Of a stretch of 64,000 nt of DNA, positions 16,205 to 28,941 are shown one piece after another. The stretch spans positions 1,952,001-2,016,000 of the forward strand of contig CBDBEV010000001.1 of assembly GCA_965204535.1 (NCBI GenBank), written 5' to 3'. This DNA is from a bacterium. GTDB taxonomy: Bacteria; UBA8248. The notes under the pieces are model-generated. The model searched no databases and was not told where the DNA came from. It saw nothing but the letters and a program-made list of their open reading frames with translations. The position numbers and the translations under genes are program-made. Position 1 is the first letter of the stretch, and every line of letters begins with the position of its first letter.

Positions 16205-17665
16205 TCAACCCGAACCCACCGCTTCCTCCCCGAAGCGCTCGATCGTCTCGAGCGTCTCGCGCACGTCGTCCCAGGTCGTGTTGTGATTGATGATGCAGAA
16301 CCGGAGCGCGAACTTCCCCTTGAGAAGGGTGGAGGACACGAACGCCTTGTCGTCCCAGAAGATGCGGGCGAGAACCGTTCTGTTAATCTCCTCCAGCGCT
16401 TCCTCGTCCAGGCCGGCCTCCGCCGGATTGACCCGGAAGCAAACGATGCCCAGCGAGACGGGTGTGAGCATCTCCAGATGCGGGCTTTCGCGAACATACG
16501 CCTCGGCACGCTCGGCCAGCTCCATGCCCCTGGAAACAGCGCGCCTGAACGCGACCATGCCGAAGGTCTGCACCGACATCCAGACCTTGAGCGCCCGGAA
16601 CGAGCGGCTCAGTTGCAGGCCGCGATCCGAGAAGTTGGGGTGGTTCGCGCCCCATATCGTGTCCTGGAGAATGTCGTGGCGCACCGCGAAGGCGCGCTCG
16701 AGCGTTTTCACGTCCTTCACGAGCAGGGCGCCCGCCTCGTAGGGCTGGAAGAACCACTTGTGCGCGTCCATCCCGATGGAATCGGCGCGCTCCATGCCGC
16801 TGAGGAGTTCCTTGCCCCACTCGGTGACGGTCGCGAAGCCGCCGTAGGCGGCGTCGACGTGCAGCCAGACCCCCTGCGCCTCGCAGAAATCCGCCATCTC
16901 CACAAGCGGATCGACGGCCCCCGTACTGGAGGCGCCCGCGTTGGCGCACACCGCGATGGGGTGGAGCCCCGCCGCGCGATCTTCCGCCACGGCGCGCGCG
17001 AGCGCTTCCATGTCCAGGCGGAAGCGTTCATCACACGGAAGAAGCCTGATGCGCTCGGGCCGAATACCGATGATGCGCGCCGCGCGGACGTGCGCGCTGT
17101 GGCTCTGATCGGCCATGTAGACGCTCGCGCGCTCGGGATGACCCGCCGCTTCGCGCGCCGCGACGAAGGCGTCCAGGCTCGCCGCCGACCCCCCGCTCGT
17201 GAAAAGCCCGCCCGCGCTCTCGGGGTAGCCGACCCAGCGCCGGAACCAGTCGATGACGACCAACTCCAACTGGCTCGGGCCGCTCGCGACCAGCCAGGTA
17301 CATTGATTGACGTGGAAGCCCGAGGCCATGAAGTCCGCCAGCACACCGGGCCAGGTGGGCGAGGAGGGGATGAAGCCGAAGAAGCGGGGATGATCGTTGC
17401 GCCCCGTGAGGGGAAGTATCTCACGCGCGGCGCGCTCCAGAACCTCCACCGCGGGCCGTCCGTCCTCGGGTGGAGCCTCCATCAGTTGTTTTTCGAGCTC
17501 CTGCTGAAAGTCTCCGTCCCAGGCGCCTTCCCCGGGGAGGTTTTCGGTTCGCTCCACCAGGAGTTCCGCCGCCCTGCGCGCCAGAGCGAGCATCGACTCG
17601 GGCGTCATGCGGAGGCCGTCGTCTCCAAAGTCCGACGCCTCTCTTCTCTCGGAACTCGCCATCAT
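16205..17665 (-). CDS. Group II PLP-dependent decarboxylase (aromatic-L-amino-acid decarboxylase-like)
   Basis: HPRFFGFIP, GLFTSGGS, GAVDPL, WLHVDAAYGG, DAHKWF (PLP lysine), LSRSFRALKVW. Start uncertain (17665/17662). Confidence 0.88.
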   Translation of the reverse strand: MMASSERREASDFGDDGLRMTPESMLALARRAAELLVERTENLPGEGAWDGDFQQELEKQLMEAPPEDGRPAVEVLERAAREILPLTGRNDHPRFFGFIPSSPTWPGVLADFMASGFHVNQCTWLVASGPSQLELVVIDWFRRWVGYPESAGGLFTSGGSAASLDAFVAAREAAGHPERASVYMADQSHSAHVRAARIIGIRPERIRLLPCDERFRLDMEALARAVAEDRAAGLHPIAVCANAGASSTGAVDPLVEMADFCEAQGVWLHVDAAYGGFATVTEWGKELLSGMERADSIGMDAHKWFFQPYEAGALLVKDVKTLERAFAVRHDILQDTIWGANHPNFSDRGLQLSRSFRALKVWMSVQTFGMVAFRRAVSRGMELAERAEAYVRESPHLEMLTPVSLGIVCFRVNPAEAGLDEEALEEINRTVLARIFWDDKAFVSSTLLKGKFALRFCIINHNTTWDDVRETLETIERFGEEAVGSG

Positions 17666-17801
17666 GCCTCCACTGTCGTCCGGAACGATTGAAATACGTC
17701 GTGGGTCCAAGACGCCGGCGCAGGGCCCCGCCTCGCTCAACTCCCTTCACCGGAAGCTCGGACTTAAAGCGGAAATACCGGGATTTCTTCGATTCTATAT
17801 C

Positions 17802-18161: not shown

Positions 18162-18500
18162 ATGGAAATTAAGACTGAGCAGGAAAGCGGGACGTTGGTC
18201 GTGCAGGTTGACGGCCGCATCGACGGCGCCACCGCCCCGGATTTCGAGAGCACCATCAAGAACGTAATCAGCGAAGACGACCGCGCCGTCATCGTTAATT
18301 TCGAGGGAGTCTCGTATATCAGCAGCGCCGGCCTCCGCGCCGTTCTTCTCGTCGCCAAGCAGCTTAGTCAAAGCAACACGAAGTTCGCCCTGTACGCGCT
18401 CGGAGAACTGACGCGCGAGGTTTTCGAGATATCCGGCTTCGACCGCATCATTCAGATCCACAACTCGAAAGCGGACGCCCTCGCCGCGACCGCGAACTGA
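18162..18500 (+). CDS. STAS-domain anti-sigma factor antagonist (RsbV/SpoIIAA-like)
   Basis: GRIDGATAP, VSYISSAGLR (phosphoacceptor Ser), VFEISGFD; GGAGG RBS. Confidence 0.92.
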   Translation: MEIKTEQESGTLVVQVDGRIDGATAPDFESTIKNVISEDDRAVIVNFEGVSYISSAGLRAVLLVAKQLSQSNTKFALYALGELTREVFEISGFDRIIQIHNSKADALAATAN

Positions 18501-18644: not shown

Positions 18645-20834
18645 TCACCGCGGCAATTCGACGATCATTTCCGTGAATTCGTCCGGCTCGGTTTCGACCC
18701 GTATGTTTCCCCCATGCTGACGAATAATGTCGCTGGATAGAGAAAGGCCGAGCCCGGTGCCCTTGTCCGTCGGCTTGGTCGTGAAGAAGGGGTTGAATAT
18801 CTTCTCGACGACCTCGGGCGGCATCCCGCTCCCGTTGTCGCGAATGCGGACCTCGATGCCGTCCGGCCTGCACCTGGTAACGAGCTTCAGCGTGGGATCG
18901 TAGCGCGGCGCATCTTCGGCGGCGGCGACTTTTTGCCGTTTCTCATGGGTGGCGTAGCAGGCGTTGCTCACCATGTTCAGGAAGACGCGGCCCAGATCCT
19001 GCGGAATGACCTCGCATTCCACCATATCCGGATCCAAATCCCAATCGAGCGTGAGGTTGAAATTCGGGTCTGCCGCCCGTGCGCTGTGGTAGGCGAGGCG
19101 CGCGTGTTCGTCGAGCAGGGTGTTGATGTTGGTCGGCTGCGCCTCTCCCGAACCCCTGCCCATCTGGAGCATGCTCTCCACGATGTTGTTGGCCCGCTCC
19201 CCGTGTTCGCGGATGCGCTGGAGGTTGCCGGTGAGGTCTTCTCCGATTTCGGTGATGAGCTCGATCGGATCCTCTTCGTCCTGCTTTTTCTCCTCCTTGT
19301 CCTCCTGCGGTTCCTGCCCGTTTTCCTGCCCGTTGCCGCCGTGAGCCGCCATCTTCTCCAACTCTTCCATCAACTCCTCCATCAGCTCTTCGGAGACTTC
19401 CGAGAAGTTCTTGATGAAGTTCAGCGGATTTCTGATCTCGTGAGCCACGCCCGCCGTCAATTCACCGAGCGCCGCGAGTTTCTCGCGCATGACAATCTGA
19501 TCCTGCGCCTTTTCCAGATCGCCGAGCGCGCTTTCGAGTTCTTCGTTTTTGCCCTTGATCTCCTCGGCCAGTTTCTCCACCAGGTTGAGGCGCTGCACCT
19601 CCAGGGCATGGCGGCGGAAGATTTCGAGCGCGGCGGCCATTTCCGCGACTTCATCCTGCCCGCCGATATCGACTTTCTCCTCCAGATCGCCGTCGGCCAT
19701 GCGGCGCATGCGGTCCGAGAGCCGCCCGAGCCGACGCGAAAGCACACGGCCGATGAACAGCCAGCCGATCAGCACGGCGCCGATGAAACTGATGGCGCTC
19801 AGCGCGAGCAGGATGTTGCTGCCGGTGCTGATGGCCTGGGCGGAATCCTGGGTGGCCTGCTTCGCGCTCTTGCGGGCCGTGCCCACCAGCGTTTCGGTGG
19901 CGGCCAGAATTTTCGCTTCCTGAGATTCGTGAAACGCGAGCAACTCGCCCTGTTTCCTCTCGAGCGCCAGTTCACGCGCGCGCAGATTGAAACCTCCATC
20001 CTCCCCGATGCTCAACTCGATCATCTGTTCGAAGAGAGGCTCGAGAGCCGCGCGCACCGGAACCTTTCCAAGCGCGTTCATACGCCGCCGGATACCGCGC
20101 GCCGTGGCCTCGAAGCGCTCGCGCAACGGCTCGATCTGGGCGGCGTCCGATACGCTGAAAGCGGTAGCGAGAAGCTGGGTCGCGATAGTGGCGTCCGACC
20201 GCAAGCCGGCGATGTAGCGGTAGAGGTTAAACCCCTCCTCCGAGAAGTGCTTTTCACGGGGAACGGGCGCCGCGCCGATTTTGCCGTAACCCGTCATCGC
20301 GTAGAACAACTGATCGTCGATGGCGGGAACCATGACGTTGTTCAGCTCCTTGCGCACCCATGTGAGCTGGAGTTGGAGGGTATCGCGCAGATCGGTGAGA
20401 TTGAAGCGTTGCAGCACCAATCGTTTGATGGCATTGAGGTTCTCTATCAGCACGTCTCCGAGTTTCTTGATGCGCAAAGAGATTTCCTCATTCCCTTCCT
20501 GGCGAATCAGCGCCGCAAGCGCCGTCTCGAACGCCTCCTGGTCCTTGGCGACCTCGGTGGCTATTTGGTCCAGGATGTCAGGGTTCACCACCGCGGCCAG
20601 CCGCGGCGCGGCGGCCACCAGGGCGGTGCTCTCCTGGGCGATTCCGAAGGCGCTCGCCAGGAACGGGACGGTGCCTTCGTTCACGCGGTTCTGCACCTCG
20701 CCCACGAACCCGAACGAGACCCATGCAACCACGCTCGCGATGACGGTGAGAGAAGCGGCGGCGCCGATGCTGAGGTAGAGTTGCGTCGATATCTGGTAAC
20801 GCTTGTCCAGGAGGTTCTTCAGCGCGCTTTTCAT
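18645..20834 (-). CDS. Sensor histidine kinase with TorS-like helical periplasmic domain, HAMP, HisKA and HATPase_c
   Basis: Two TM helices; HAMP (DEVAEMAAAL); H-box AGVAHEIRNPLNF; N-box VFLNMVSNA; DNGSG; FFTTKP..GTGLGL. Start at MKSALK overlaps the SBP stop by 4 bp. Confidence 0.9.
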   Translation of the reverse strand: MKSALKNLLDKRYQISTQLYLSIGAAASLTVIASVVAWVSFGFVGEVQNRVNEGTVPFLASAFGIAQESTALVAAAPRLAAVVNPDILDQIATEVAKDQEAFETALAALIRQEGNEEISLRIKKLGDVLIENLNAIKRLVLQRFNLTDLRDTLQLQLTWVRKELNNVMVPAIDDQLFYAMTGYGKIGAAPVPREKHFSEEGFNLYRYIAGLRSDATIATQLLATAFSVSDAAQIEPLRERFEATARGIRRRMNALGKVPVRAALEPLFEQMIELSIGEDGGFNLRARELALERKQGELLAFHESQEAKILAATETLVGTARKSAKQATQDSAQAISTGSNILLALSAISFIGAVLIGWLFIGRVLSRRLGRLSDRMRRMADGDLEEKVDIGGQDEVAEMAAALEIFRRHALEVQRLNLVEKLAEEIKGKNEELESALGDLEKAQDQIVMREKLAALGELTAGVAHEIRNPLNFIKNFSEVSEELMEELMEELEKMAAHGGNGQENGQEPQEDKEEKKQDEEDPIELITEIGEDLTGNLQRIREHGERANNIVESMLQMGRGSGEAQPTNINTLLDEHARLAYHSARAADPNFNLTLDWDLDPDMVECEVIPQDLGRVFLNMVSNACYATHEKRQKVAAAEDAPRYDPTLKLVTRCRPDGIEVRIRDNGSGMPPEVVEKIFNPFFTTKPTDKGTGLGLSLSSDIIRQHGGNIRVETEPDEFTEMIVELPR

Positions 20835-22018
20835 CTTTTCTCCGGCCGCCGGATTTTTTCGGTTGGGATGTAGCGGCCGCCCTCGCCGACGACGGTGAGG
20901 AAAACGGCGTCCGACCCCTGGTTGTCGTCTTTGCCGAAGCGGAGCTTGAATCCGCCGAGGTCGATGGTGGCCGCGCGTCGCAGGCTTTTCAGAAGACAGT
21001 TGCGGTCGGGCTTGCGCCCGCACAACTCGAGGGCGCGAATGGCCAGTCTGCCGGCCATGTAGCCCTCGAATGAGACGAAGCTGGGAGTCGCGCCAGGTTT
21101 GTGAGTCTCCAGGTCCCGCCGGTAGTCGGCCGCGATCTCGAGATTCTCCATTGTCGGGAACGGAACCACCTGCGTGACGTAGATACCGACGCCGGCGGGG
21201 CCGAGTTCACGCACGAGCGCATTGCTGCCCACGAAGGATATTGTTACGAAAATCGGATTGAACCCCGTATGGCGCGCCCAGGCGATGAAGGAGGCGACCG
21301 GTTTGTAGGCCCCCACGAGGACCACCGCTTCGGGGTCCGCGCGCCTGATGTCGAGCAGGGCCGTTTTGACCGCCGTCGTATTCCGTGGATAGACTCCGGT
21401 GACCGCCGGTTTCAGGTTTCGTCGCTCCAGGGCGCGGCGAACGCCCCGGTAGCCCGCCAGACCGAAGGAATCGTTCTGGTAAAGCACGGCGATCTTCTTG
21501 ACGTCCAAGTCCTTGATCAGGCGATCCACTATCTCCTCGGTCTCCTGGAAATAGGAGGCCCGCAGGTTGATCACGTTCTTCCATTTGGGATCGCGCAAGA
21601 AGGCGGCGCCGGTGAAGGGCGCGATGTAGGGGACGTTCGCTTTTGCAGCGACTGGCGTGGCCGAGCGCGAGGTGGGCGTGCCGACGGCCCCGATGAGCGC
21701 GAAAACCTTGCTCTTCTCTATCAGCCGGCGGGTGTTCAGGATGGCGGCTTCGGGCTCATACGCATCGTCGAGGGATGTGAGTTCGAGCCGGCGTCCGTGA
21801 ACGCCGCCGCGCTCGTTCGCCGTGCGAAAGGCGGCTTCGACCCCGAGACGCATCTCCTCGCCCAGAACACTCGCGGGACCGGTGAAGGCGGCGGATTGAC
21901 CGAAAAGAATCCGGTCAGGAGAAACCCCGGGCACGGCCGCCTGCGCCCCCGACGCCGAGCAGATTATCGCTGCAGCAAGGAGGATAAACGCCCGGCAGAT
22001 TCGGAGTGGGAGGCTCAT
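20831..22018 (-). CDS. Periplasmic solute-binding protein (Leu/Ile/Val-binding, PBP type 1), with no cognate permease in the locus
   Basis: Signal peptide (..SGAQA); FGQSAAFTGP, GGVHGR, LDDAYEP, VFALIGAVGTPT, NLRASY, YQNDSFG. Confidence 0.88.
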   Translation of the reverse strand: MSLPLRICRAFILLAAAIICSASGAQAAVPGVSPDRILFGQSAAFTGPASVLGEEMRLGVEAAFRTANERGGVHGRRLELTSLDDAYEPEAAILNTRRLIEKSKVFALIGAVGTPTSRSATPVAAKANVPYIAPFTGAAFLRDPKWKNVINLRASYFQETEEIVDRLIKDLDVKKIAVLYQNDSFGLAGYRGVRRALERRNLKPAVTGVYPRNTTAVKTALLDIRRADPEAVVLVGAYKPVASFIAWARHTGFNPIFVTISFVGSNALVRELGPAGVGIYVTQVVPFPTMENLEIAADYRRDLETHKPGATPSFVSFEGYMAGRLAIRALELCGRKPDRNCLLKSLRRAATIDLGGFKLRFGKDDNQGSDAVFLTVVGEGGRYIPTEKIRRPEKR

Positions 22019-22434
22019 TCACTCCTCCGCTTGACAAGGCGCATATGGTTCTTGTTCTCCTCCCGTCGATAAGTCACATCGTCCATCATCGTCCGCACCA
22101 GGTGGATGCCGAGCCCGCCCACGGCGCGGTCTTCGATGCCCGAGTCGGTGTCCGGTTCGGGCGCGTCGGTCAGGGGATCGAACGGACGGCCGTCGTCGAT
22201 GATATCGATGATCACCGCCTCCGCGTCCGAGATGAGTTCGATGCTGATTTCCCCCCTTCCGCCTTCGCTACCATGATGCACGGCGTTGAGAATCAGCTCT
22301 TCGAGCACGAGGTCGACCTGGAATTCGATGTCGGGCGGCCAGTCCTGCTCCCGGCTGAATTCCCCGATGGCGGACTGGATGCGCGGGAGATCCGAGGCTT
22401 CGAATCCCATTGTCAAAGAAAGTTTCGCGCTCAT
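22015..22434 (-). CDS. Anti-sigma factor Ser/Thr kinase (RsbW/SpoIIAB-like, HATPase_c_2)
   Basis: EELILNAVHHG (N-box), DDGRPFDP, GGLGIHLVR..MDDVTY. Confidence 0.92.
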   Translation of the reverse strand: MSAKLSLTMGFEASDLPRIQSAIGEFSREQDWPPDIEFQVDLVLEELILNAVHHGSEGGRGEISIELISDAEAVIIDIIDDGRPFDPLTDAPEPDTDSGIEDRAVGGLGIHLVRTMMDDVTYRREENKNHMRLVKRRSE

Positions 22435-23648
22435 TCACTCACTCCACGGCGAAAAAGGGTCAGGCAAGTAATATCATCGAATTGAGGCGCTTTGCCCGCG
22501 AATTCCTTTACATCCTCAAAAACCTTCGTGTTGATCTCCCGGGCCGAGGCCGGCGACGCCCCCCCCAGAATCTCCCGGAGGCGGTCGAGGCCGAACTGAT
22601 CGGTCTTCTCGTTCTCCGCCTCCGTGACGCCGTCGGTGTAGAGAACGAGGGCCTCACCGGGGGCGAGAGTCGCATTGTACATGTCGTAACTGAACTCGGG
22701 CGCGATCCCGAGGGCGACTCCCGGATCCTGGGAAAGCAGGCTCGATGAGCCGTCGGCGTGAAGGACGAGCGGGGGGTTGTGCCCGCCGTTGGCGTAGACG
22801 AGTTCCCCGGACGTGGAGTCGTAAATGGCGAAAAAGACGGTGACGAACATCGCGGCGTCGTTGTTCTCCTGAAGCAGGCGGTTCACCTCGCTCAACACAT
22901 CACCGGGCCGGAGCAGACGGTTCACCTCGCCGAGCACGTCGCCCGGATTGGCGCGAGCGACAGCGACGCTGTTGAGCAGCGTGCGGCTCGACATCATGAA
23001 AAGGGCGGCGGGCACCCCCTTGCCGGAAACGTCGGCGACCGTGATGCCGATGCGGCCGTCGGAAAGGTCTATCACGTCGAAGAAATCACCCCCCACGTCG
23101 CGGGCGGGCTCCATGCCCCCGAATATCTCGTAGTGGGGGCTTTCGGGGAATTTCGTCGGCAGAATCGATTGCTGCATCTTGCTGGCCAGGTCGAGGTCGC
23201 TCCTCAAGGCGACGAGCTTGTCGCGCGCCTCGAGCGCTTCGCGCAGCATGGCGAGGTGCTCCAGGGTCCGTTCTATGGTGATCCGCAAATCCTCGAAATC
23301 GATCGGCTTGGTGACGAAGTCGAAGGCGCCCCTGTTCATCGCCGTGCGGATGTTCTTCATGTCTCCATACGCCGAAACCACTACGGAGCGCACGTTGGGG
23401 TCGACCGAGGGGATTTGCTTGAGCAGGGTGAGGCCGTCCATCTCCGGCATGTTGATGTCCGTGAGCACCATGTCGATAGGGTCGCCGCCATCGTTATCGT
23501 TCAAGCGCTCAAGCGCTTCGACCCCGTTGCGGGCGAAGACGAACGAATAGCGGCCTCTTCGTATCTCGCGCCGCATGCGCTGTAACACGAGCTGCTCGAG
23601 ATCGGGCTCGTCGTCGACCACGAGTATCCTGTGGGGTTCCTCCATCAC
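22431..23648 (-). CDS. Response-regulator REC domain fused to SpoIIE/PP2C phosphatase (RsbU/RsbY-like)
   Basis: ILVVDDE, TDINMPEMDG, FVTKP; VGGDFFD, ADVSGKGVPAA, NGGHNPP, YTDGVTEA, DDIT. Confidence 0.93.
   Translation of the reverse strand: MMEEPHRILVVDDEPDLEQLVLQRMRREIRRGRYSFVFARNGVEALERLNDNDGGDPIDMVLTDINMPEMDGLTLLKQIPSVDPNVRSVVVSAYGDMKNIRTAMNRGAFDFVTKPIDFEDLRITIERTLEHLAMLREALEARDKLVALRSDLDLASKMQQSILPTKFPESPHYEIFGGMEPARDVGGDFFDVIDLSDGRIGITVADVSGKGVPAALFMMSSRTLLNSVAVARANPGDVLGEVNRLLRPGDVLSEVNRLLQENNDAAMFVTVFFAIYDSTSGELVYANGGHNPPLVLHADGSSSLLSQDPGVALGIAPEFSYDMYNATLAPGEALVLYTDGVTEAENEKTDQFGLDRLREILGGASPASAREINTKVFEDVKEFAGKAPQFDDITCLTLFRRGVSE
22873..22946 (-). repeat. In-frame 39-bp tandem duplication inside the PP2C gene (PGDVLGEVNRLL-R-PGDVLSEVNRLL)
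   Basis: Two imperfect copies at 22873-22907 and 22912-22946; period 39 bp. Confidence 0.85.
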
Positions 23649-24085
23649 GGCCTCCCTTCCGCCAACATCTTGTCGCGCGCCTCGAAGGCTTCCCGCATCG
23701 ACTTGAGATGCTCCAAAGACTTCTCGATGGTAAGCCGCAAGTCCTCGAAATCAATCGGCTTGTTCAGGAAATCGAATGCGCCCCTGTTCATCGCCGTACG
23801 GATGTTCTTCATGTCCCCATACGCCGAGACGATGACACAGCGGAGCTTGGGGTCGAAAGCGGGGATTTGCTCGAGCAGGGTGAGGCCGTCCATCTCCGGC
23901 ATGTTGATGTCCGTGATGACGATGTCGATTTCATCGTCATTGTTTAAGCGCTCTAGCGCTTCGACCCCGTTGCGGGCGAAGACGAACGAATAGCGGCCGC
24001 TGCGAATTTCGCGCCGCATGCGCTGCAGCACCAGACCTTCAAGATCGGGTTCATCGTCGACTACGAGTATCCTGTGCGAATCCAT
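23645..24085 (-). CDS. Single-domain response regulator, close paralog of the REC domain of the downstream PP2C
   Basis: MDSHRILVVDDEPDLE...TDINMPEMDG...KPIDFEDL; near-identical to the N-terminus of 22431..23648. Confidence 0.9.
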   Translation of the reverse strand: MDSHRILVVDDEPDLEGLVLQRMRREIRSGRYSFVFARNGVEALERLNNDDEIDIVITDINMPEMDGLTLLEQIPAFDPKLRCVIVSAYGDMKNIRTAMNRGAFDFLNKPIDFEDLRLTIEKSLEHLKSMREAFEARDKMLAEGRP

Positions 24086-24478
24086 CGTCCGGGTCTCTCC
24101 ACCGCTTAGACTTAATCCGACCAACGATCAAGCACTTTCGAATTCCAGCTAAATGTATATAAGACTCACGCGGCGCGCAACTCATTTCTCACTCCGCCTC
24201 GTGCCCGAACGAACCTGCGCGGCGGCCTGCAACCCCCTGAAACCATGGCTTCACCGGCGCCCGCTCCCGGCATGAGGCCGCTCGGCCGCCGGATTTCGTC
24301 CATACCGGTTTCTCTTCCCGCGAGCATCCAGACCTCCTGAACCCATGAGGCGATTCCGCGCCGAATGTGGGTAAAGCGGCGAAAATTTCATCCGCCGCCC
24401 GGTTGTCCAGGCCCTCGGGTTCGCGTATCTTGGGGGACGAAGTGCCGCCATGCGCGAACCACCAGAGGAATCCCTGCT

Positions 24479-25066
24479 TTGACCCGTAAACCCAAAAGTA
24501 AAAAGAAAGGCGCAAGAGCCGCCGGAAGAAGGGCTCCGCGCCCGGCGAGAACCATTGGCTCGAAGAAGAAAAGCACCGCCCCGTTCGTGTGGGCGATCGT
24601 CATCGCCGCGGTCGTAATCGGCATCTACTACTTTACGGGCGCATCGGCGAACAAGGCGCGCGACGTGCCTTCCCTCGGCAACCGCCACATCCGCGTGGGC
24701 ACGAGCGGCGCCGTCGCCTACAACACGGACCCCCCCACATCGGGGCCTCACTATCCGACCATCGTCCCATGGGGCGTGCACTGGAAGCCGATCGACAAAG
24801 GTTTTCAAGTCCATAACCTCGAAGACGGCGGCGTGCTGGTGCAGTATGGCTGCGGCGATTGCCCCGAACTCGTGAAAAAACTCGAGAAAATCGTACGCGG
24901 CTACCCGAAGTTCGTCATCCTCGCCCCGTACCCGTCGATGAAACACAGAATCGCGCTCACCGCCTGGGGCAAGATAGATACGCTGGAGACTTTTGATGAG
25001 AAGCGCATCACCGCCTTCATCGACGCCTATCGCGGCCTCGACCACCACCCACGGGGGAGGAGATAG
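24479..25066 (+). CDS. DUF3105 family membrane-anchored protein
   Basis: YNTDPPTSGPHY, VHNLEDGGVLVQY, IALTAWG; basic N-tail plus one TM helix; TTG start after AGAGGA (start uncertain). Confidence 0.8.
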   Translation: MTRKPKSKKKGARAAGRRAPRPARTIGSKKKSTAPFVWAIVIAAVVIGIYYFTGASANKARDVPSLGNRHIRVGTSGAVAYNTDPPTSGPHYPTIVPWGVHWKPIDKGFQVHNLEDGGVLVQYGCGDCPELVKKLEKIVRGYPKFVILAPYPSMKHRIALTAWGKIDTLETFDEKRITAFIDAYRGLDHHPRGRR

Positions 25067-25172: not shown

Positions 25173-26945
25173 TCAACCCCCTCCGCCGCCGGCCGCGCCC
25201 GGAACCTCCACGCGCAGGGTCACGATGTCCGTGTCGTGGTATTGCTGGTGGCGAACCGAGGAGGCGAGGTGGCGCAGCAGTCTGAGCGAGACTTCACGCT
25301 CAATCGGCGCACCGGCGGTCTGCTCGCCGAGCAGCGCGATTTTGTCCTGAAGGTTATCCTCTCCGCCCGCGGCGACGAACTCCAGCACCGCGCCGCCGTC
25401 TTCTTTATGCGCCACCATGAGCAGACGCCGCCGCTTGCGGCTCTCGTCGGCTTCGTCCGGGCGCAGGAGCGTCAGCAGCGTTTCCTCGCCCGCGGCGTCG
25501 AGGCGATGCGCCATCGCCTCATCCCAGCCGCTGGCCGAGGCGAACTCACCGAGAAACTCCCTGATCTTCGGCAAGGCGGAGATGTCGAACGCCACCTCGA
25601 GACGGCTGCGGCGCGGTTCGGTGATCTCCACGAACAAGGTCATGATCATGGCGACGAGGCCGCCGGCCGTCATTCCGTTGTTCAAAAGGCCGCCCGCGAA
25701 CGTGGAGAAATACTCGGGATATATGACGCCGTTCTGGAAGCCGACACCCGCCCAGAACGCGACGCCCGCGACCAGCCCCTTGCGGTAGTCGATCCCGTCC
25801 TGAACGACCATCCGCATGCCGACCACGAAGAGCATCGCCAGCAGCACGGTGATGTAGGCCGCGGCGACCGGCCCCGGTATCGCCAGCACCACGGCGACCA
25901 GCTTGGGAAGAAACGCCAGGGCGAGGAACACCAGCCCGGCGGCGACTCCGACGCTGCGCGCGCCGACGCCGGTGAGTTCGGTGACGGACACGCTCGTCGA
26001 ATAGGTCGTGTTCGGCACCGTCGCCAAAAGGCCGGAGAGCAGGTTGCCCACTCCGTCGGCGGCCACCGCGCCCTGCACCGCCTTGAAGTCTACCGCCCGG
26101 GGCCGCCGCCAGGACACGCGCTGGATGGCGGCGCCGTCGCCCACGGTCTCGATGGCGCCGATCAGGGTCACGAAAACGAATCCCGGCAGAAGCGTCCAGA
26201 ACACCGGCCCGAAGCTCAGATCCAGGCCCGGCCATGTGCCCCGGGGAAGACCGATCCATGAAGCTTCGGCGACGCGGGCCGTATCGTAGATGCCGAACCA
26301 GAGTCCGACGAGCGAGCCCGCGACCACGCCGATCACCGGCGCCCACAGGCGCAGCGCACCCGTCGCCTTGAGCGCAATGCCGACGATGACCACCGCCGAC
26401 ACGAACGCGCTCAGCGGAGCTGCGAGCGGGGGAGCGCCCTTGGGCGCGTCATCGAGCATACCGAAGACGATGGGCATCACCGTCACCGCTATCAGCATGA
26501 TGACGGTTCCCGCCACGGTCGGCGTCAGCACCCGCCGGAACAACGAGAGACGCTCGGAAAGTACGAACTGAAAAAGCGAGGAGGCGAGGACCAGCGTGGC
26601 CAGCATCCCCGGCCCGCCCTTGGCGAGCGCCGCGATGCAGACCGCGATGAAAGCGCCCGATGTGCCCATGATGAGCACGTAGCCCGCGCCGAAGCGGCCG
26701 AGCCGGATCGCCTGGAGCATCGTGGTTGCGCCGCAGATCGCCACCGCGGCGAACACCGCCCACGAGAGATAGTCCTCGGCACCGCCGGCGGCGCGCACCA
26801 CGATCGCCGGCGTGAAAACGATGCCGCCCACGCAGAGGACGGCGAGTTGCAAGCCCAGGCCGAACGCGAGCAGGGGCGGTGGTTTCTCGTCGGCCTCGTA
26901 GCGTACGTCGGTGTTCGCGTGCCGGTCGGCGTCTTCGGCGCTCAT
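25173..26945 (-). CDS. NCS2 (xanthine/uracil/ascorbate) permease fused to a C-terminal degenerate RsbW-like GHKL domain
   Basis: NCS2 core (YEADEKPP..GLQ, TPTVAGTVI, ETVGD, ADGVGN, PNTTY, GVGAR, PKL, IPGPV) plus an ~145-aa soluble tail that aligns by eye with the RsbW-like protein at 22015-22434. Confidence 0.85.
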   Translation of the reverse strand: MSAEDADRHANTDVRYEADEKPPPLLAFGLGLQLAVLCVGGIVFTPAIVVRAAGGAEDYLSWAVFAAVAICGATTMLQAIRLGRFGAGYVLIMGTSGAFIAVCIAALAKGGPGMLATLVLASSLFQFVLSERLSLFRRVLTPTVAGTVIMLIAVTVMPIVFGMLDDAPKGAPPLAAPLSAFVSAVVIVGIALKATGALRLWAPVIGVVAGSLVGLWFGIYDTARVAEASWIGLPRGTWPGLDLSFGPVFWTLLPGFVFVTLIGAIETVGDGAAIQRVSWRRPRAVDFKAVQGAVAADGVGNLLSGLLATVPNTTYSTSVSVTELTGVGARSVGVAAGLVFLALAFLPKLVAVVLAIPGPVAAAYITVLLAMLFVVGMRMVVQDGIDYRKGLVAGVAFWAGVGFQNGVIYPEYFSTFAGGLLNNGMTAGGLVAMIMTLFVEITEPRRSRLEVAFDISALPKIREFLGEFASASGWDEAMAHRLDAAGEETLLTLLRPDEADESRKRRRLLMVAHKEDGGAVLEFVAAGGEDNLQDKIALLGEQTAGAPIEREVSLRLLRHLASSVRHQQYHDTDIVTLRVEVPGAAGGGGG

Positions 26946-27209: not shown

Positions 27210-27360
27210 TTTCTGAAAGCGTCTTCGTCTTATTTCGAGCGGAGGGACTGCAAGGCAAACACTCTCTCCCGAGCAAAGCGGCCGTGGCACCCAGGCAGTG
27301 GAGAACGAGGGGACACCACCTCGTTATCGGCCAGGGCCATATTCTGGAGAACTCGAGGCA

Positions 27361-27648
27361 GTGAAAACCGTAGAGGAAGTACGCGAAGAGATTGTCAGAA
27401 AAGCGAGCGAGAATGAGGCATTCCGCGCCGAATTGGTGGCCGACCCCAAAATCGCCATTGAAAAGGAATTGGGAGTCACCATTCCCGAGGGGTTCAAGAT
27501 CGGCGTGCACGAAGATAACATCATGAGCATCAACCTGGTGCTGCCGCCGGCCGAGTTGAGCGAGGAGGATCTGAGCGCCGTCGTGGCCGGAGCACAGATG
27601 TGGCAAGAATTCGCCAACGCCTGGAACAGCTTGAACCAGAACTCCTGA
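27361..27648 (+). CDS. NHLP-leader (nitrile hydratase-like) RiPP precursor peptide
   Basis: Leader EIVRKASENEAFRAELVADPKIAIEKELGVTIPEGFKIGVHED...LVLPP..ELSEEDLSAVVAG, then core (A)QMWQEFANAWNSLNQNS; 95 aa from a GTG start. Confidence 0.9.
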   Translation: MKTVEEVREEIVRKASENEAFRAELVADPKIAIEKELGVTIPEGFKIGVHEDNIMSINLVLPPAELSEEDLSAVVAGAQMWQEFANAWNSLNQNS

Positions 27649-27843
27649 TACGATATATCCAAATAGAGCAACAGTCCGTTCGGTCGGTTCGCCGAAAAAC
27701 CCCGGGAAGGGGATGGTTCGGGACGCCGCTTTGCGGGTTTGAACCGCGTTGCGGCCCGCTTCGCCGAAGGGAGGCCGGGGTGCCGCGCTTGCTCATCGCC
27801 GCCTTGCCCCCAATGTATGCGTCCCGCTCGGAAACAGGGTTCG

Positions 27844-28941
27844 ATGATGTCTGAGAATTTCGGGGACGTCTTTCCAAGGTTGCGCCGCTTTGTTCCATCG
27901 GCCTTACTCAACGGCCCATGGTGGGACCGCCTGGTGGAGCGCGTCGGTGAACTTCCGAGTTGGCTGACTCTGAATTACGCGGCCTTCGAGTTTCGGCTGG
28001 GAGACTCTGCGCCCGCCGCCGATTATTTCGTCTCGGTTGCGCCGGGGCGTCCGTCCATGGAGTATTACGTTCGTCTGGGCGAGGCCGCAAAACCCGACTC
28101 CGCGGAGGCGGCTCTCGGCCGCGTCTACGCTCTCATGAATGGAGCGGGTCCCCCTTCCGAATCATCAATCATCGGCTGGTTCAGGGCGTCGATGCTCGAA
28201 TACGACATCGCGGAGGTCCCCCCGGACCTGCGCCCGGCCCCGGGCGTGTTCCTGGCGCTCAAGCCTCAATCCGAACTGGATGAAGACGCCGCGGGCTCAA
28301 GGACACCCCACCGCCTGGCCGCCACCATAGCGAACGCGGTCGGGTGGGAGGAGGACGAGGCGGAGCGCCTCGCCGTGGAGCGGGCCTTCGCCGCCTTGCC
28401 CGGAAGTGGCGTGGTGGATCAGATTGGCGCCGCCCCCGAGCGCGGGCCGCGCCTGATTCGCCTGATCGTGGACGGGTTGAAACTGCGCAATGTGCCCGCA
28501 TTCCTGAAACGGCTGAAATGGGATGGCTCCACCCGGAAAGTGATGGACACGCTGGAGGAGATGCGCGATATGACGCCCGTCTTCCGAATGGCGCTGGACG
28601 TCTCCGCGCACGGCGTGGGGCCGCGCCTGGGTCTTGAGATGTACAGGCCGAGAAGCCCCTCGGACCTCGACTACTGGCTGACTTCGGGGCGCAACGCCTG
28701 GCGTCCCGTCATGAACTATCTAGAAGATATGAAATGGTGTCTGCCGGAGAAGGGGGACGGCCTGCGGGCGTTCCCGGGAATCGAGAGACTCTTCGAGGAA
28801 AAGGGCATGTCCATCCTGTACAAGGGAATCAACCACTTCAAGCTCTCGATCGAGGGCGACGCCGTAGAAGCCAAGGCCTACGCCGCCCTCGCCTACTTCC
28901 GGCTCTACGCCGACTCGGAGGGTGAATCGGAGCCGGGGTGA
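27844..28941 (+). CDS. Hypothetical RiPP maturase, possibly an ABBA-fold peptide prenyltransferase
   Basis: Directly downstream of the NHLP precursor; blocks FEFRL..ADY, LEYD..PAPGVFL, QIG..R..IRL, LDV..VGPRLGLE, NHFKL..EAKAY. The CDS is solid; the function is inferred. Confidence 0.55.
   Translation: MMSENFGDVFPRLRRFVPSALLNGPWWDRLVERVGELPSWLTLNYAAFEFRLGDSAPAADYFVSVAPGRPSMEYYVRLGEAAKPDSAEAALGRVYALMNGAGPPSESSIIGWFRASMLEYDIAEVPPDLRPAPGVFLALKPQSELDEDAAGSRTPHRLAATIANAVGWEEDEAERLAVERAFAALPGSGVVDQIGAAPERGPRLIRLIVDGLKLRNVPAFLKRLKWDGSTRKVMDTLEEMRDMTPVFRMALDVSAHGVGPRLGLEMYRPRSPSDLDYWLTSGRNAWRPVMNYLEDMKWCLPEKGDGLRAFPGIERLFEEKGMSILYKGINHFKLSIEGDAVEAKAYAALAYFRLYADSEGESEPG

Follow-up and report, generated by a model that had tools for sequence, protein, structure and literature searches.

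What does a domain that resembles a serine kinase, and that has lost residues of its nucleotide pocket, do at the end of a membrane transporter? The question is raised by a gene in a 64,000-nucleotide stretch of the bacterium UBA8248 (assembly GCA_965204535.1, contig CBDBEV010000001.1, positions 1,952,001 to 2,016,000), called here the window. The open reading frame (ORF) at 25173-26945, on the reverse strand, is a single unbroken frame with a 590-amino acid (aa) product, in which an NCS2 permease is followed by a domain of the predicted RsbW/SpoIIAB fold. The gene and its two parts are:

25173..26945, reverse strand: NCS2 permease with a predicted RsbW-fold pseudokinase domain (P0001), 590 aa.
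25617..26945, reverse strand: permease part, residues 1-443, of the UapA/UraA/SVCT fold by alignment to UapA and by fold match.
25176..25616, reverse strand: C-terminal domain of predicted RsbW/SpoIIAB fold (P0002), residues 444-590, 147 aa, from profiles and a structural model.

We propose, with a probability of about 0.45, that this protein is a STAS-controlled transporter: the tail, without its ATP motifs, would dock the unphosphorylated STAS protein of a partner-switching module, and the module would in this way switch transport.

An RsbW-like tail on an NCS2 permease had been read from the DNA in an earlier note (the original prediction), and this was borne out: the quoted peptides are present, and profiles and the fold search agree. 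The same note had the tail aligning end to end with the RsbW protein encoded nearby, which failed in pairwise comparison and held only with profiles on both sides. By BLASTP the alignment with that protein was limited to tail residues 6-49 (32% identity), and the tail profile run against the single RsbW sequence gave 60.5% probability over 49 columns. When 64 tails were compared with 24 RsbW proteins, profile against profile, the match spanned 127 columns with a probability of 93.7% (E 1.9e-7). The window's tail has no match to Pfam HATPase_c_2, a family matched by 15 of the 64 tail homologues at E ≤1 (best 1.9e-6), and the tail profile matched nothing meaningful among PDB sequences. Sub-cut-off matches to DUF5691 and QSOX conflict with the fold and were rejected; neither Pfam nor the fold search detected STAS in the tail. 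The AlphaFold model of the tail has a predicted local distance difference test score (pLDDT) of 77, with low confidence in the lid region (98-110). With this model Foldseek returned UsfX at E 3.8e-7, and the best matches (Foldseek, VIA-align) were UsfX (Z 14.4), RsbW (13.4), the RsbW domain of Rv1364c (13.3) and SpoIIAB (12.6), superposed on the tail with a root mean square deviation of 2.4-3.9 over 102-118 residues. SiaB (Z 10.4) and LvrC (9.7) ranked next, and histidine kinases reached at most 6.9. The tail is thus predicted to have a Bergerat/GHKL fold, with RsbW, SpoIIAB and UsfX as the top matches, as the original prediction had supposed. In the ESM Atlas, clusters of hypothetical proteins of 114-163 aa score 0.92-0.97 to tails, and HATPase_c_2 is found in 15% of the 379 members of one such cluster; these are possibly free-standing dead RsbW proteins.

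A divergent Nitrospirales clade (clade B, P0274), 33% identical to the window's fusion over 567 aa, confirms the architecture without a structural model, since in precomputed Pfam data 17 of its 18 relatives carry both PF00860 and PF13581 (HATPase_c_2). The plain NCS2 proteins compared here are without the 147-aa domain.

Motif positions in the tail were anchored by alignment to SpoIIAB. The suspected loss of the N-box Asn and of the DxG and GxG motifs from the fused copy was confirmed: N50 is replaced by T492, the G1 Asp by A525 and the G2 Gly by S553. Throughout the main clade the N-box position holds Thr, Ser or Ala (Asn in 1 of 137 copies), the G1 Asp has become Ala and the second G2 Gly Ser; clade B keeps the G1 Asp and the second Gly, and His replaces its N-box Asn. 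In true RsbW proteins the N-box Asn, the G1 Asp and the G2 Gly, G107 included, are invariant in all 24 aligned. Because these residues are lost, we infer that ATP binding and kinase activity by the tail are unlikely. The original prediction had missed that E488, which aligns to the catalytic-base Glu46 of SpoIIAB, and E487, which directly precedes it, are both kept. All 145 locus-derived copies have E487, and 143 of them have E488; counted by clade, the figures for the pair are 137/137 and 17/17. In SpoIIAB, Glu46 is the catalytic base and Asn50 a Mg2+ ligand, and Ser45 and Thr49 are close to the STAS site (10.1101/2022.07.14.500015). A Glu patch retained beside a lost nucleotide pocket would be the pattern expected of a STAS-reading pseudokinase.

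The window also encodes a partner-switching module. The genes between the fusion and the STAS gene, and the STAS gene itself, are:

24365..25066, forward strand: DUF3105 gene, between the fusion and the partner-switching module.
23645..24085, reverse strand: stand-alone receiver protein, a near-duplicate of the receiver of the next gene.
22431..23648, reverse strand: response regulator with a SpoIIE/PP2C phosphatase (RR-PP2C, RsbU-like), 405 aa.
22015..22434, reverse strand: intact RsbW-type serine kinase, 139 aa, with E46, N50, D80, G107 and G109.
20831..22018, reverse strand: periplasmic binding protein (Peripla_BP_6), with no ABC transporter genes alongside.
18645..20834, reverse strand: TorS-like sensor histidine kinase (HAMP, HisKA, HATPase_c), 729 aa.
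18162..18500, forward strand: STAS anti-anti-sigma protein, 112 aa.

The RsbW gene, whose start is 2,739 bp from the fusion, matches HATPase_c_2 at E 1.3e-25 and is the only full-length match to that family in the window's genome. Ser55 of the STAS protein is conserved in every one of 25 aligned STAS sequences. It is likely that the periplasmic binding protein is the partner of the TorS-like kinase. The genome holds two fusion genes and one plain permease, as well as a second, unlinked STAS gene (L002, G000:C1:720016-720324), 35% identical, whose product is an alternative partner for the fusion tails. The stand-alone receiver is ~80% identical to the receiver of RR-PP2C; the two are a tandem duplication, kept in close relatives and absent in two genomes of the window's genus (L134 and L135), which also have no DUF3105 gene at that position. 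A promoter and terminator scan gave no signal exceeding chance.

The five genes for RR-PP2C, RsbW, binding protein, TorS-like kinase and STAS recur across phyla in varied order, with the module's own sensor genes (L084, L085, L087, L089, L092-L094, L096-L098, L100, L101, L114-L116, L118, L120, L121 and L128). Outside the closest relatives the TorS-like kinase of the recurrent modules is 35-68% identical. A literature search found no paper describing this five-gene module.

The neighborhood sample comprised 147 distinct near-full-length fusion copies from 158 loci; it is non-random and contains many close relatives. A STAS, RsbW or PP2C gene lies within 8 kb of 19 copies, 30 copies are in polyketide synthase (PKS) cassettes, and 98 are in neither setting. 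The 19 module-adjacent copies represent four lineages, namely the window's genus, one Nitrospirales group, clade B and one Latescibacterota genome. In L134 and L135 the gene immediately downstream of the fusion, in the same orientation, is RR-PP2C, with 624-629 bp between the fusion and the PP2C domain; in the Nitrospirales group it is 127-167 bp from RsbW. In clade B (L123) it is 50 bp from a PP2C gene with another sensor domain and 155 bp from RsbW, followed by STAS, and PP2C adjoins the fusion in 4 of 5 metagenome loci of this clade. In the Latescibacterota genome the distance to the module genes is 4.7-6.6 kb. The tight adjacency (127-167 bp) stands clear of chance, with 0.1 cases expected within 1 kb. 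A copy 17 kb from RsbW (G026) was not scored as adjacent, and G020/G033 (L096, L103, L120) have an NCS2 gene at 3 kb from the module that was left out of the adjacency counts, as it encodes a plain 453-aa permease with no tail. Upstream of one clade B fusion (L141:1895-6728) are two large ORFs resembling binding proteins and a 415-aa protein whose N-terminal part is STAS-like.

At the level of whole genomes, RsbW (HATPase_c_2, E ≤1e-10) was present in 50 of 50 fusion genomes drawn from 80 loci versus 4 of 14 controls. Across four sampled clades, at strict cut-offs, it was detected in 73 of 74 fusion-bearing versus 21 of 243 fusion-less genomes. The single clades gave 14/14 versus 2/41 (Pfam, E 1e-10), 24/24 versus 4/87 (profile A3, E <1e-40), 20/21 versus 5/29 (profile A3, strict) and 15/15 versus 10/86 (E 1e-25). 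The dependence is one-way: the module is found without the fusion, and the fusion almost never without RsbW. Hence the predicted genomic tie of the fusions to STAS, RsbW and PP2C genes stands as co-occurrence and as adjacency in four lineages, with two phosphatase types. In fusion-less Nitrospirales (G110, G114, G121 and G142, for example) an RsbW-like domain lies inside frames of ~930 aa with a different architecture.

If the tail takes its orders from the module, what does the permease carry? Pfam Xan_ur_permease (PF00860) covers residues 30-402 at 146.8 bits (gathering score 27), and with NCBIfam ncs2 (TIGR00801) the permease scores 168.6, under the 291.8-bit cut-off. The full-length model (pLDDT 87.7) matches UapA, UraA and SVCT1, then SLC26; Foldseek gave UapA at E 2e-17, with 5i6c, 8omz and 8jez best (template modeling score to target 0.70-0.82). 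Residues kept relative to UapA are Q33 (Q85), E266 (E356), D270 (D360), D297 (D388) and T325 (T416); those changed are L34 (H86), T317 (Q408) and S318 (N409), together with the equivalents of G411 and R417. At the position of the NAT signature, Q/E/P-N-x-G, the protein has T317-S318-V-S320, and the Gln-His of transmembrane helix (TM) 1 reads Q33-L34. The Glu and Asp of TM8 and the Asp of TM9 are present in the window's copy (E266, D270, D297), and family-wide the TM8 Glu occurs in only 89 of 137 copies. Equivalents of H86, Q408 and N409 are lost throughout the main clade; N409 has been called irreplaceable for transport by UapA (PMC3405029). What the window's copy carries is probably something other than a UapA-type purine.

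The pocket varies with the setting of the gene. All 30 copies in PKS cassettes have Arg or Lys at the E356 position; Glu occupies it in 63 of the 98 unlinked copies, and the 17 module-adjacent copies of the main clade have 12 Glu, 4 Gln and 1 Lys. Clade B keeps the equivalents of H86, E356, D360, D388 and N409, with the Gln-His and Gly-Asn present, and is changed at Q408 and at the signature Gly/Arg. Only 4 of 24 divergent representatives keep the E356 equivalent; in divergent members the pocket residues are hypervariable, and the structural Gly/Pro residues and the Glu pair of the tail are fixed. A pocket that follows operon context above a tail that stays fixed is what would be expected of transporters with real cargo.

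The PKS setting is found in the window's own genome. Its second fusion (L001), 65% identical to the window's copy, lies in a sup-type cassette (G000:C2:2403965-2419530) with a 3,482-aa type I PKS, a 79-aa ORF resembling an acyl carrier protein (ACP), a phosphopantetheinyl transferase, the fusion permease and an alpha/beta hydrolase. The window's copy is itself outside any PKS cassette and has Glu/Asp, not Arg, in the pocket. On the swf fosmid pPS11G3, the 557-aa permease encoded by ORF17 has SupE (ABE03914) as its closest homologue (PMC3908369, Table 1); the ORF lies upstream of swfA, with an anti-anti-sigma gene on each side (PMC3908369). In the parts of that paper available to us ORF17/SupE is named merely 'permease' and a tail is not described. 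From context and length, the PKS-cassette fusions are probably SupE, which has been named but is uncharacterized; the name SupE was not among the clusters looked up.

The family is large. The tail is shared by 2,897 proteins (E ≤0.001, among 6,208 candidates), which form 589 clusters at 50% identity; permease similarity was detected in 81 of 149 new representatives, and the remainder are mostly fragments. The 80 closest loci have tail identities of 62-97% and come from records of Nitrospinota, Alpha- and Gammaproteobacteria, Latescibacterota, Nitrospirales, Binatia, Verrucomicrobia-type groups, Actinomycetes and others. From these taxa and the PKS cassette, we take the fusion-bearing lineages to be mostly sponge symbionts. 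Genomes have 1-8 matches, with 6-8 in the Binatia-class genomes G305, G329 and G353, where fusion genes also occur in tandem arrays of two or three (G305:C12:166022-171987; G329:C1:1132167-1138418; G353:C1:3577855-3580667). A plasmid search gave plain NCS2-level matches only, the top 10 of 306 being 23-29% identical. Longer forms of the fusion were sought among 2,536 candidates and one protein was found, the ketosynthase-permease fusion P0379; for other such forms this is weak evidence of absence. P0379 (1,135 aa, ketosynthase-permease-tail) and P0032 (423 aa, integrase arm with a permease fragment), each a single-member cluster, are probably remnants or artefacts. A permease tree with outgroups, built by a quick method, leaves undecided whether clades A and B had one fusion event or separate ones.

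Other genes around the fusion were also noted. In the window a precursor of the NHLP-leader type of ribosomally synthesized and post-translationally modified peptide (27298-27648, forward strand; TIGR03793 above cut-off) is followed by a 400-aa protein without a Pfam or NCBIfam family (27739-28941, forward strand), and in a distant Gammaproteobacterium (L018) the fusion gene is adjoined by the same pair. Beside the STAS gene is a pyridoxal phosphate-dependent decarboxylase (16205-17740, reverse strand), of which several close relatives have two tandem copies; such a decarboxylase adjoins the fusion in L017 and L082.

On the observed fusion, motifs, gene module and co-occurrence, and on the predicted fold, a STAS-controlled transporter could work as follows. 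The binding protein and the TorS-like kinase would phosphorylate RR-PP2C. Its PP2C domain would dephosphorylate Ser55 of STAS, which RsbW would phosphorylate again. Free STAS would bind the tail on the surface around E487/E488, and as the tail would be unable to phosphorylate and release it, occupancy would report the phosphorylation state of STAS. Bound STAS would alter the activity of the transporter, a two-protein rebuild of the SulP/SLC26 arrangement, and one module per genome may govern several paralogues with different cargo.

The original prediction had cast the fusion as an input, a transceptor. In this reading the permease would sense a ligand, and its conformation would decide whether the dead RsbW domain keeps STAS at the membrane, so titrating STAS away from the true RsbW; several paralogues, each with a pocket of its own, would then be parallel inputs to one switch. 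We rank this reading second, as a live but less likely alternative; the fold, motif and co-occurrence data fit it equally. It also agrees with the hypervariable pockets of divergent members beside their fixed Gly/Pro residues and Glu pair, with the loss of H86, Q408 and N409 equivalents in the main clade, and with the place of the fusion directly upstream of RR-PP2C in L134 and L135; the window's subfamily, moreover, behaves as a lone mobile gene with no catabolic operon. Several facts of this kind weigh against a STAS-controlled transporter: the permease is without an equivalent of UapA N409, the scarcity of the E356 equivalent in divergent representatives (4/24) fits a sensor equally well, and no conserved catabolic neighbor of the window's subfamily was found among 102 crudely called neighboring ORFs, many of them in the wrong frame. 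To the same side of the balance belong the limits of the search for a sigma output, in which 3 of 19 queries were in the wrong frame and sigma54 was not searched. What that search returned speaks for an output: within these limits, 65 loci, of which 57 have an RsbW-type gene, yielded no sigma70 gene, and each of three genomes of 1.7-2.0 Mb that carry both fusion and RsbW has only three such genes, read by us as RpoD-, RpoH- and ECF (extracytoplasmic function)-like. We prefer an output over an input because the module comes with a sensor of its own and without a sigma gene linked to it, and because varied, context-specific pockets share one invariant tail in genomes with one or two RsbW genes. 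A transceptor would add an input to a module that already has a dedicated one. The consistent Arg/Lys pocket of the 30 copies in biosynthetic PKS cassettes suits export or import, the pocket differs even among the module-adjacent copies, and clade B retains most of the UapA pocket, N409 equivalent included; all three speak against a sensor.

It would be still less probable that the tail is a structural relic, an RsbW domain captured for dimer contact, folding or stability with no present signaling, and that the co-occurrence stems from a shared horizontal gene pool. The points in favor of such a history overlap with those against a STAS-controlled transporter. Most copies are unlinked: 128 of 147 have no STAS, RsbW or PP2C gene within 8 kb, so that the dedicated link to the adjacent module in the original prediction is not supported in that form. 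Fusion and RsbW lie within 10 kb of each other in 6 of 50 genomes (3 lineages) versus ~1 expected by chance, a loose adjacency that is weak (p ~0.08 when counted as lineages). A looser cut-off (E 1e-12) raises the RsbW counts of fusion-less genomes to 22/87 and 16/29, profile A3 was built from fusion-bearing genomes, and kinship and a common habitat gene pool inflate the co-occurrence, so Fisher values overstate it. The genome G211 (96% complete) has an intact fusion and neither RsbW nor STAS, 21 of the 243 fusion-less genomes carry the module, and identities of 62-97% across phyla indicate easy lateral spread. A relic, on the other hand, is hard to reconcile with the near-invariance, down to 33% identity, of two acidic residues of surface type located at the substrate site, or with tight adjacency to two different module types. 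In G211 the copy shares 89% identity with that of the window, and the sequences flanking it match repeats present in multiple copies in the window's genome, which suggests mis-binning or that the gene arrived recently. Last in our ranking comes a partner other than STAS, whether the true RsbW (in a heterodimer that would tether or inhibit the kinase), a sigma factor, or the ACP of the PKS cassettes. The pairwise likeness to the neighboring RsbW is restricted to residues 6-49, the stretch of the N-terminal strand and helices, which we take for the side on which SpoIIAB dimerizes, and the PKS-linked copies are near an ACP gene. Against such a partner, the invariant residues lie at the STAS-serine site and not only in the N-terminal part, and no linked sigma gene was found. 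NCS2 proteins are dimers, so the tails could pair with each other.

How far is the fusion from known systems? Like RsbW, SpoIIAB and UsfX (PF13581; 6m36, 6m37, 1l0o, 1th8, 8ih8; Rv1364c, 3ke6), the tail has the predicted fold, the 127-column profile match, the catalytic-base Glu and gene linkage to STAS and PP2C. Unlike them, the main-clade tail is without the N-box Asn, the G1 Asp and the G2 Gly, is fused to a transporter and has no linked sigma that we found. With NCS2/NAT/SLC23 proteins (UapA, UraA, SVCT1; PF00860, TIGR00801) the window's permease shares the fold and the equivalents of Q85, E356, D360, D388 and T416, and it differs from them in those of H86, Q408, N409, G411 and R417 and in the extra 147-aa domain. 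Each half is therefore of a known kind, and neither has the full marks of its family, the tail having no ATP motifs and the permease no NAT signature. The Sia system acts through STAS on a non-sigma effector, and we know of no transporter effector or transporter-fused dead kinase in the SiaABC and LvrC systems. Like the tail, Pseudomonas SiaABC (6kko) and Leptospira LvrC (9qih) represent RsbW-fold proteins in modules. In SulP/SLC26 proteins a transporter of the same fold carries a cytoplasmic domain drawn from the partner-switch toolkit (PMC8256260); these proteins have a fused C-terminal STAS domain, whereas here the fused domain has the predicted fold of a STAS-binding kinase, and STAS would be separate and phosphorylatable. 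No description of an NCS2-RsbW fusion was found in the literature searched, which did not cover subscription journals and supplements. New here are the link through clade B, the presence test in four clades, the invariance of the catalytic Glu and the way in which the pocket follows context.

We therefore put forward, a little more tentatively than the control of the single protein, a general picture in which dead RsbW domains, attached to a family of NCS2 transporters that includes SupE, read STAS for a sigma-less module shared by many phyla, and in which STAS phosphorylation gates transport. The family is abundant (2,897 proteins), probably with SupE among its members. If this picture is true, partner switching would extend from sigma factors to the direct control of transporters, and the fusion would offer a separable model of STAS action on the UraA/SLC26 fold, a switchable two-protein version of SLC26-STAS. 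It would also give a first handle on the regulation of the sup pathway.

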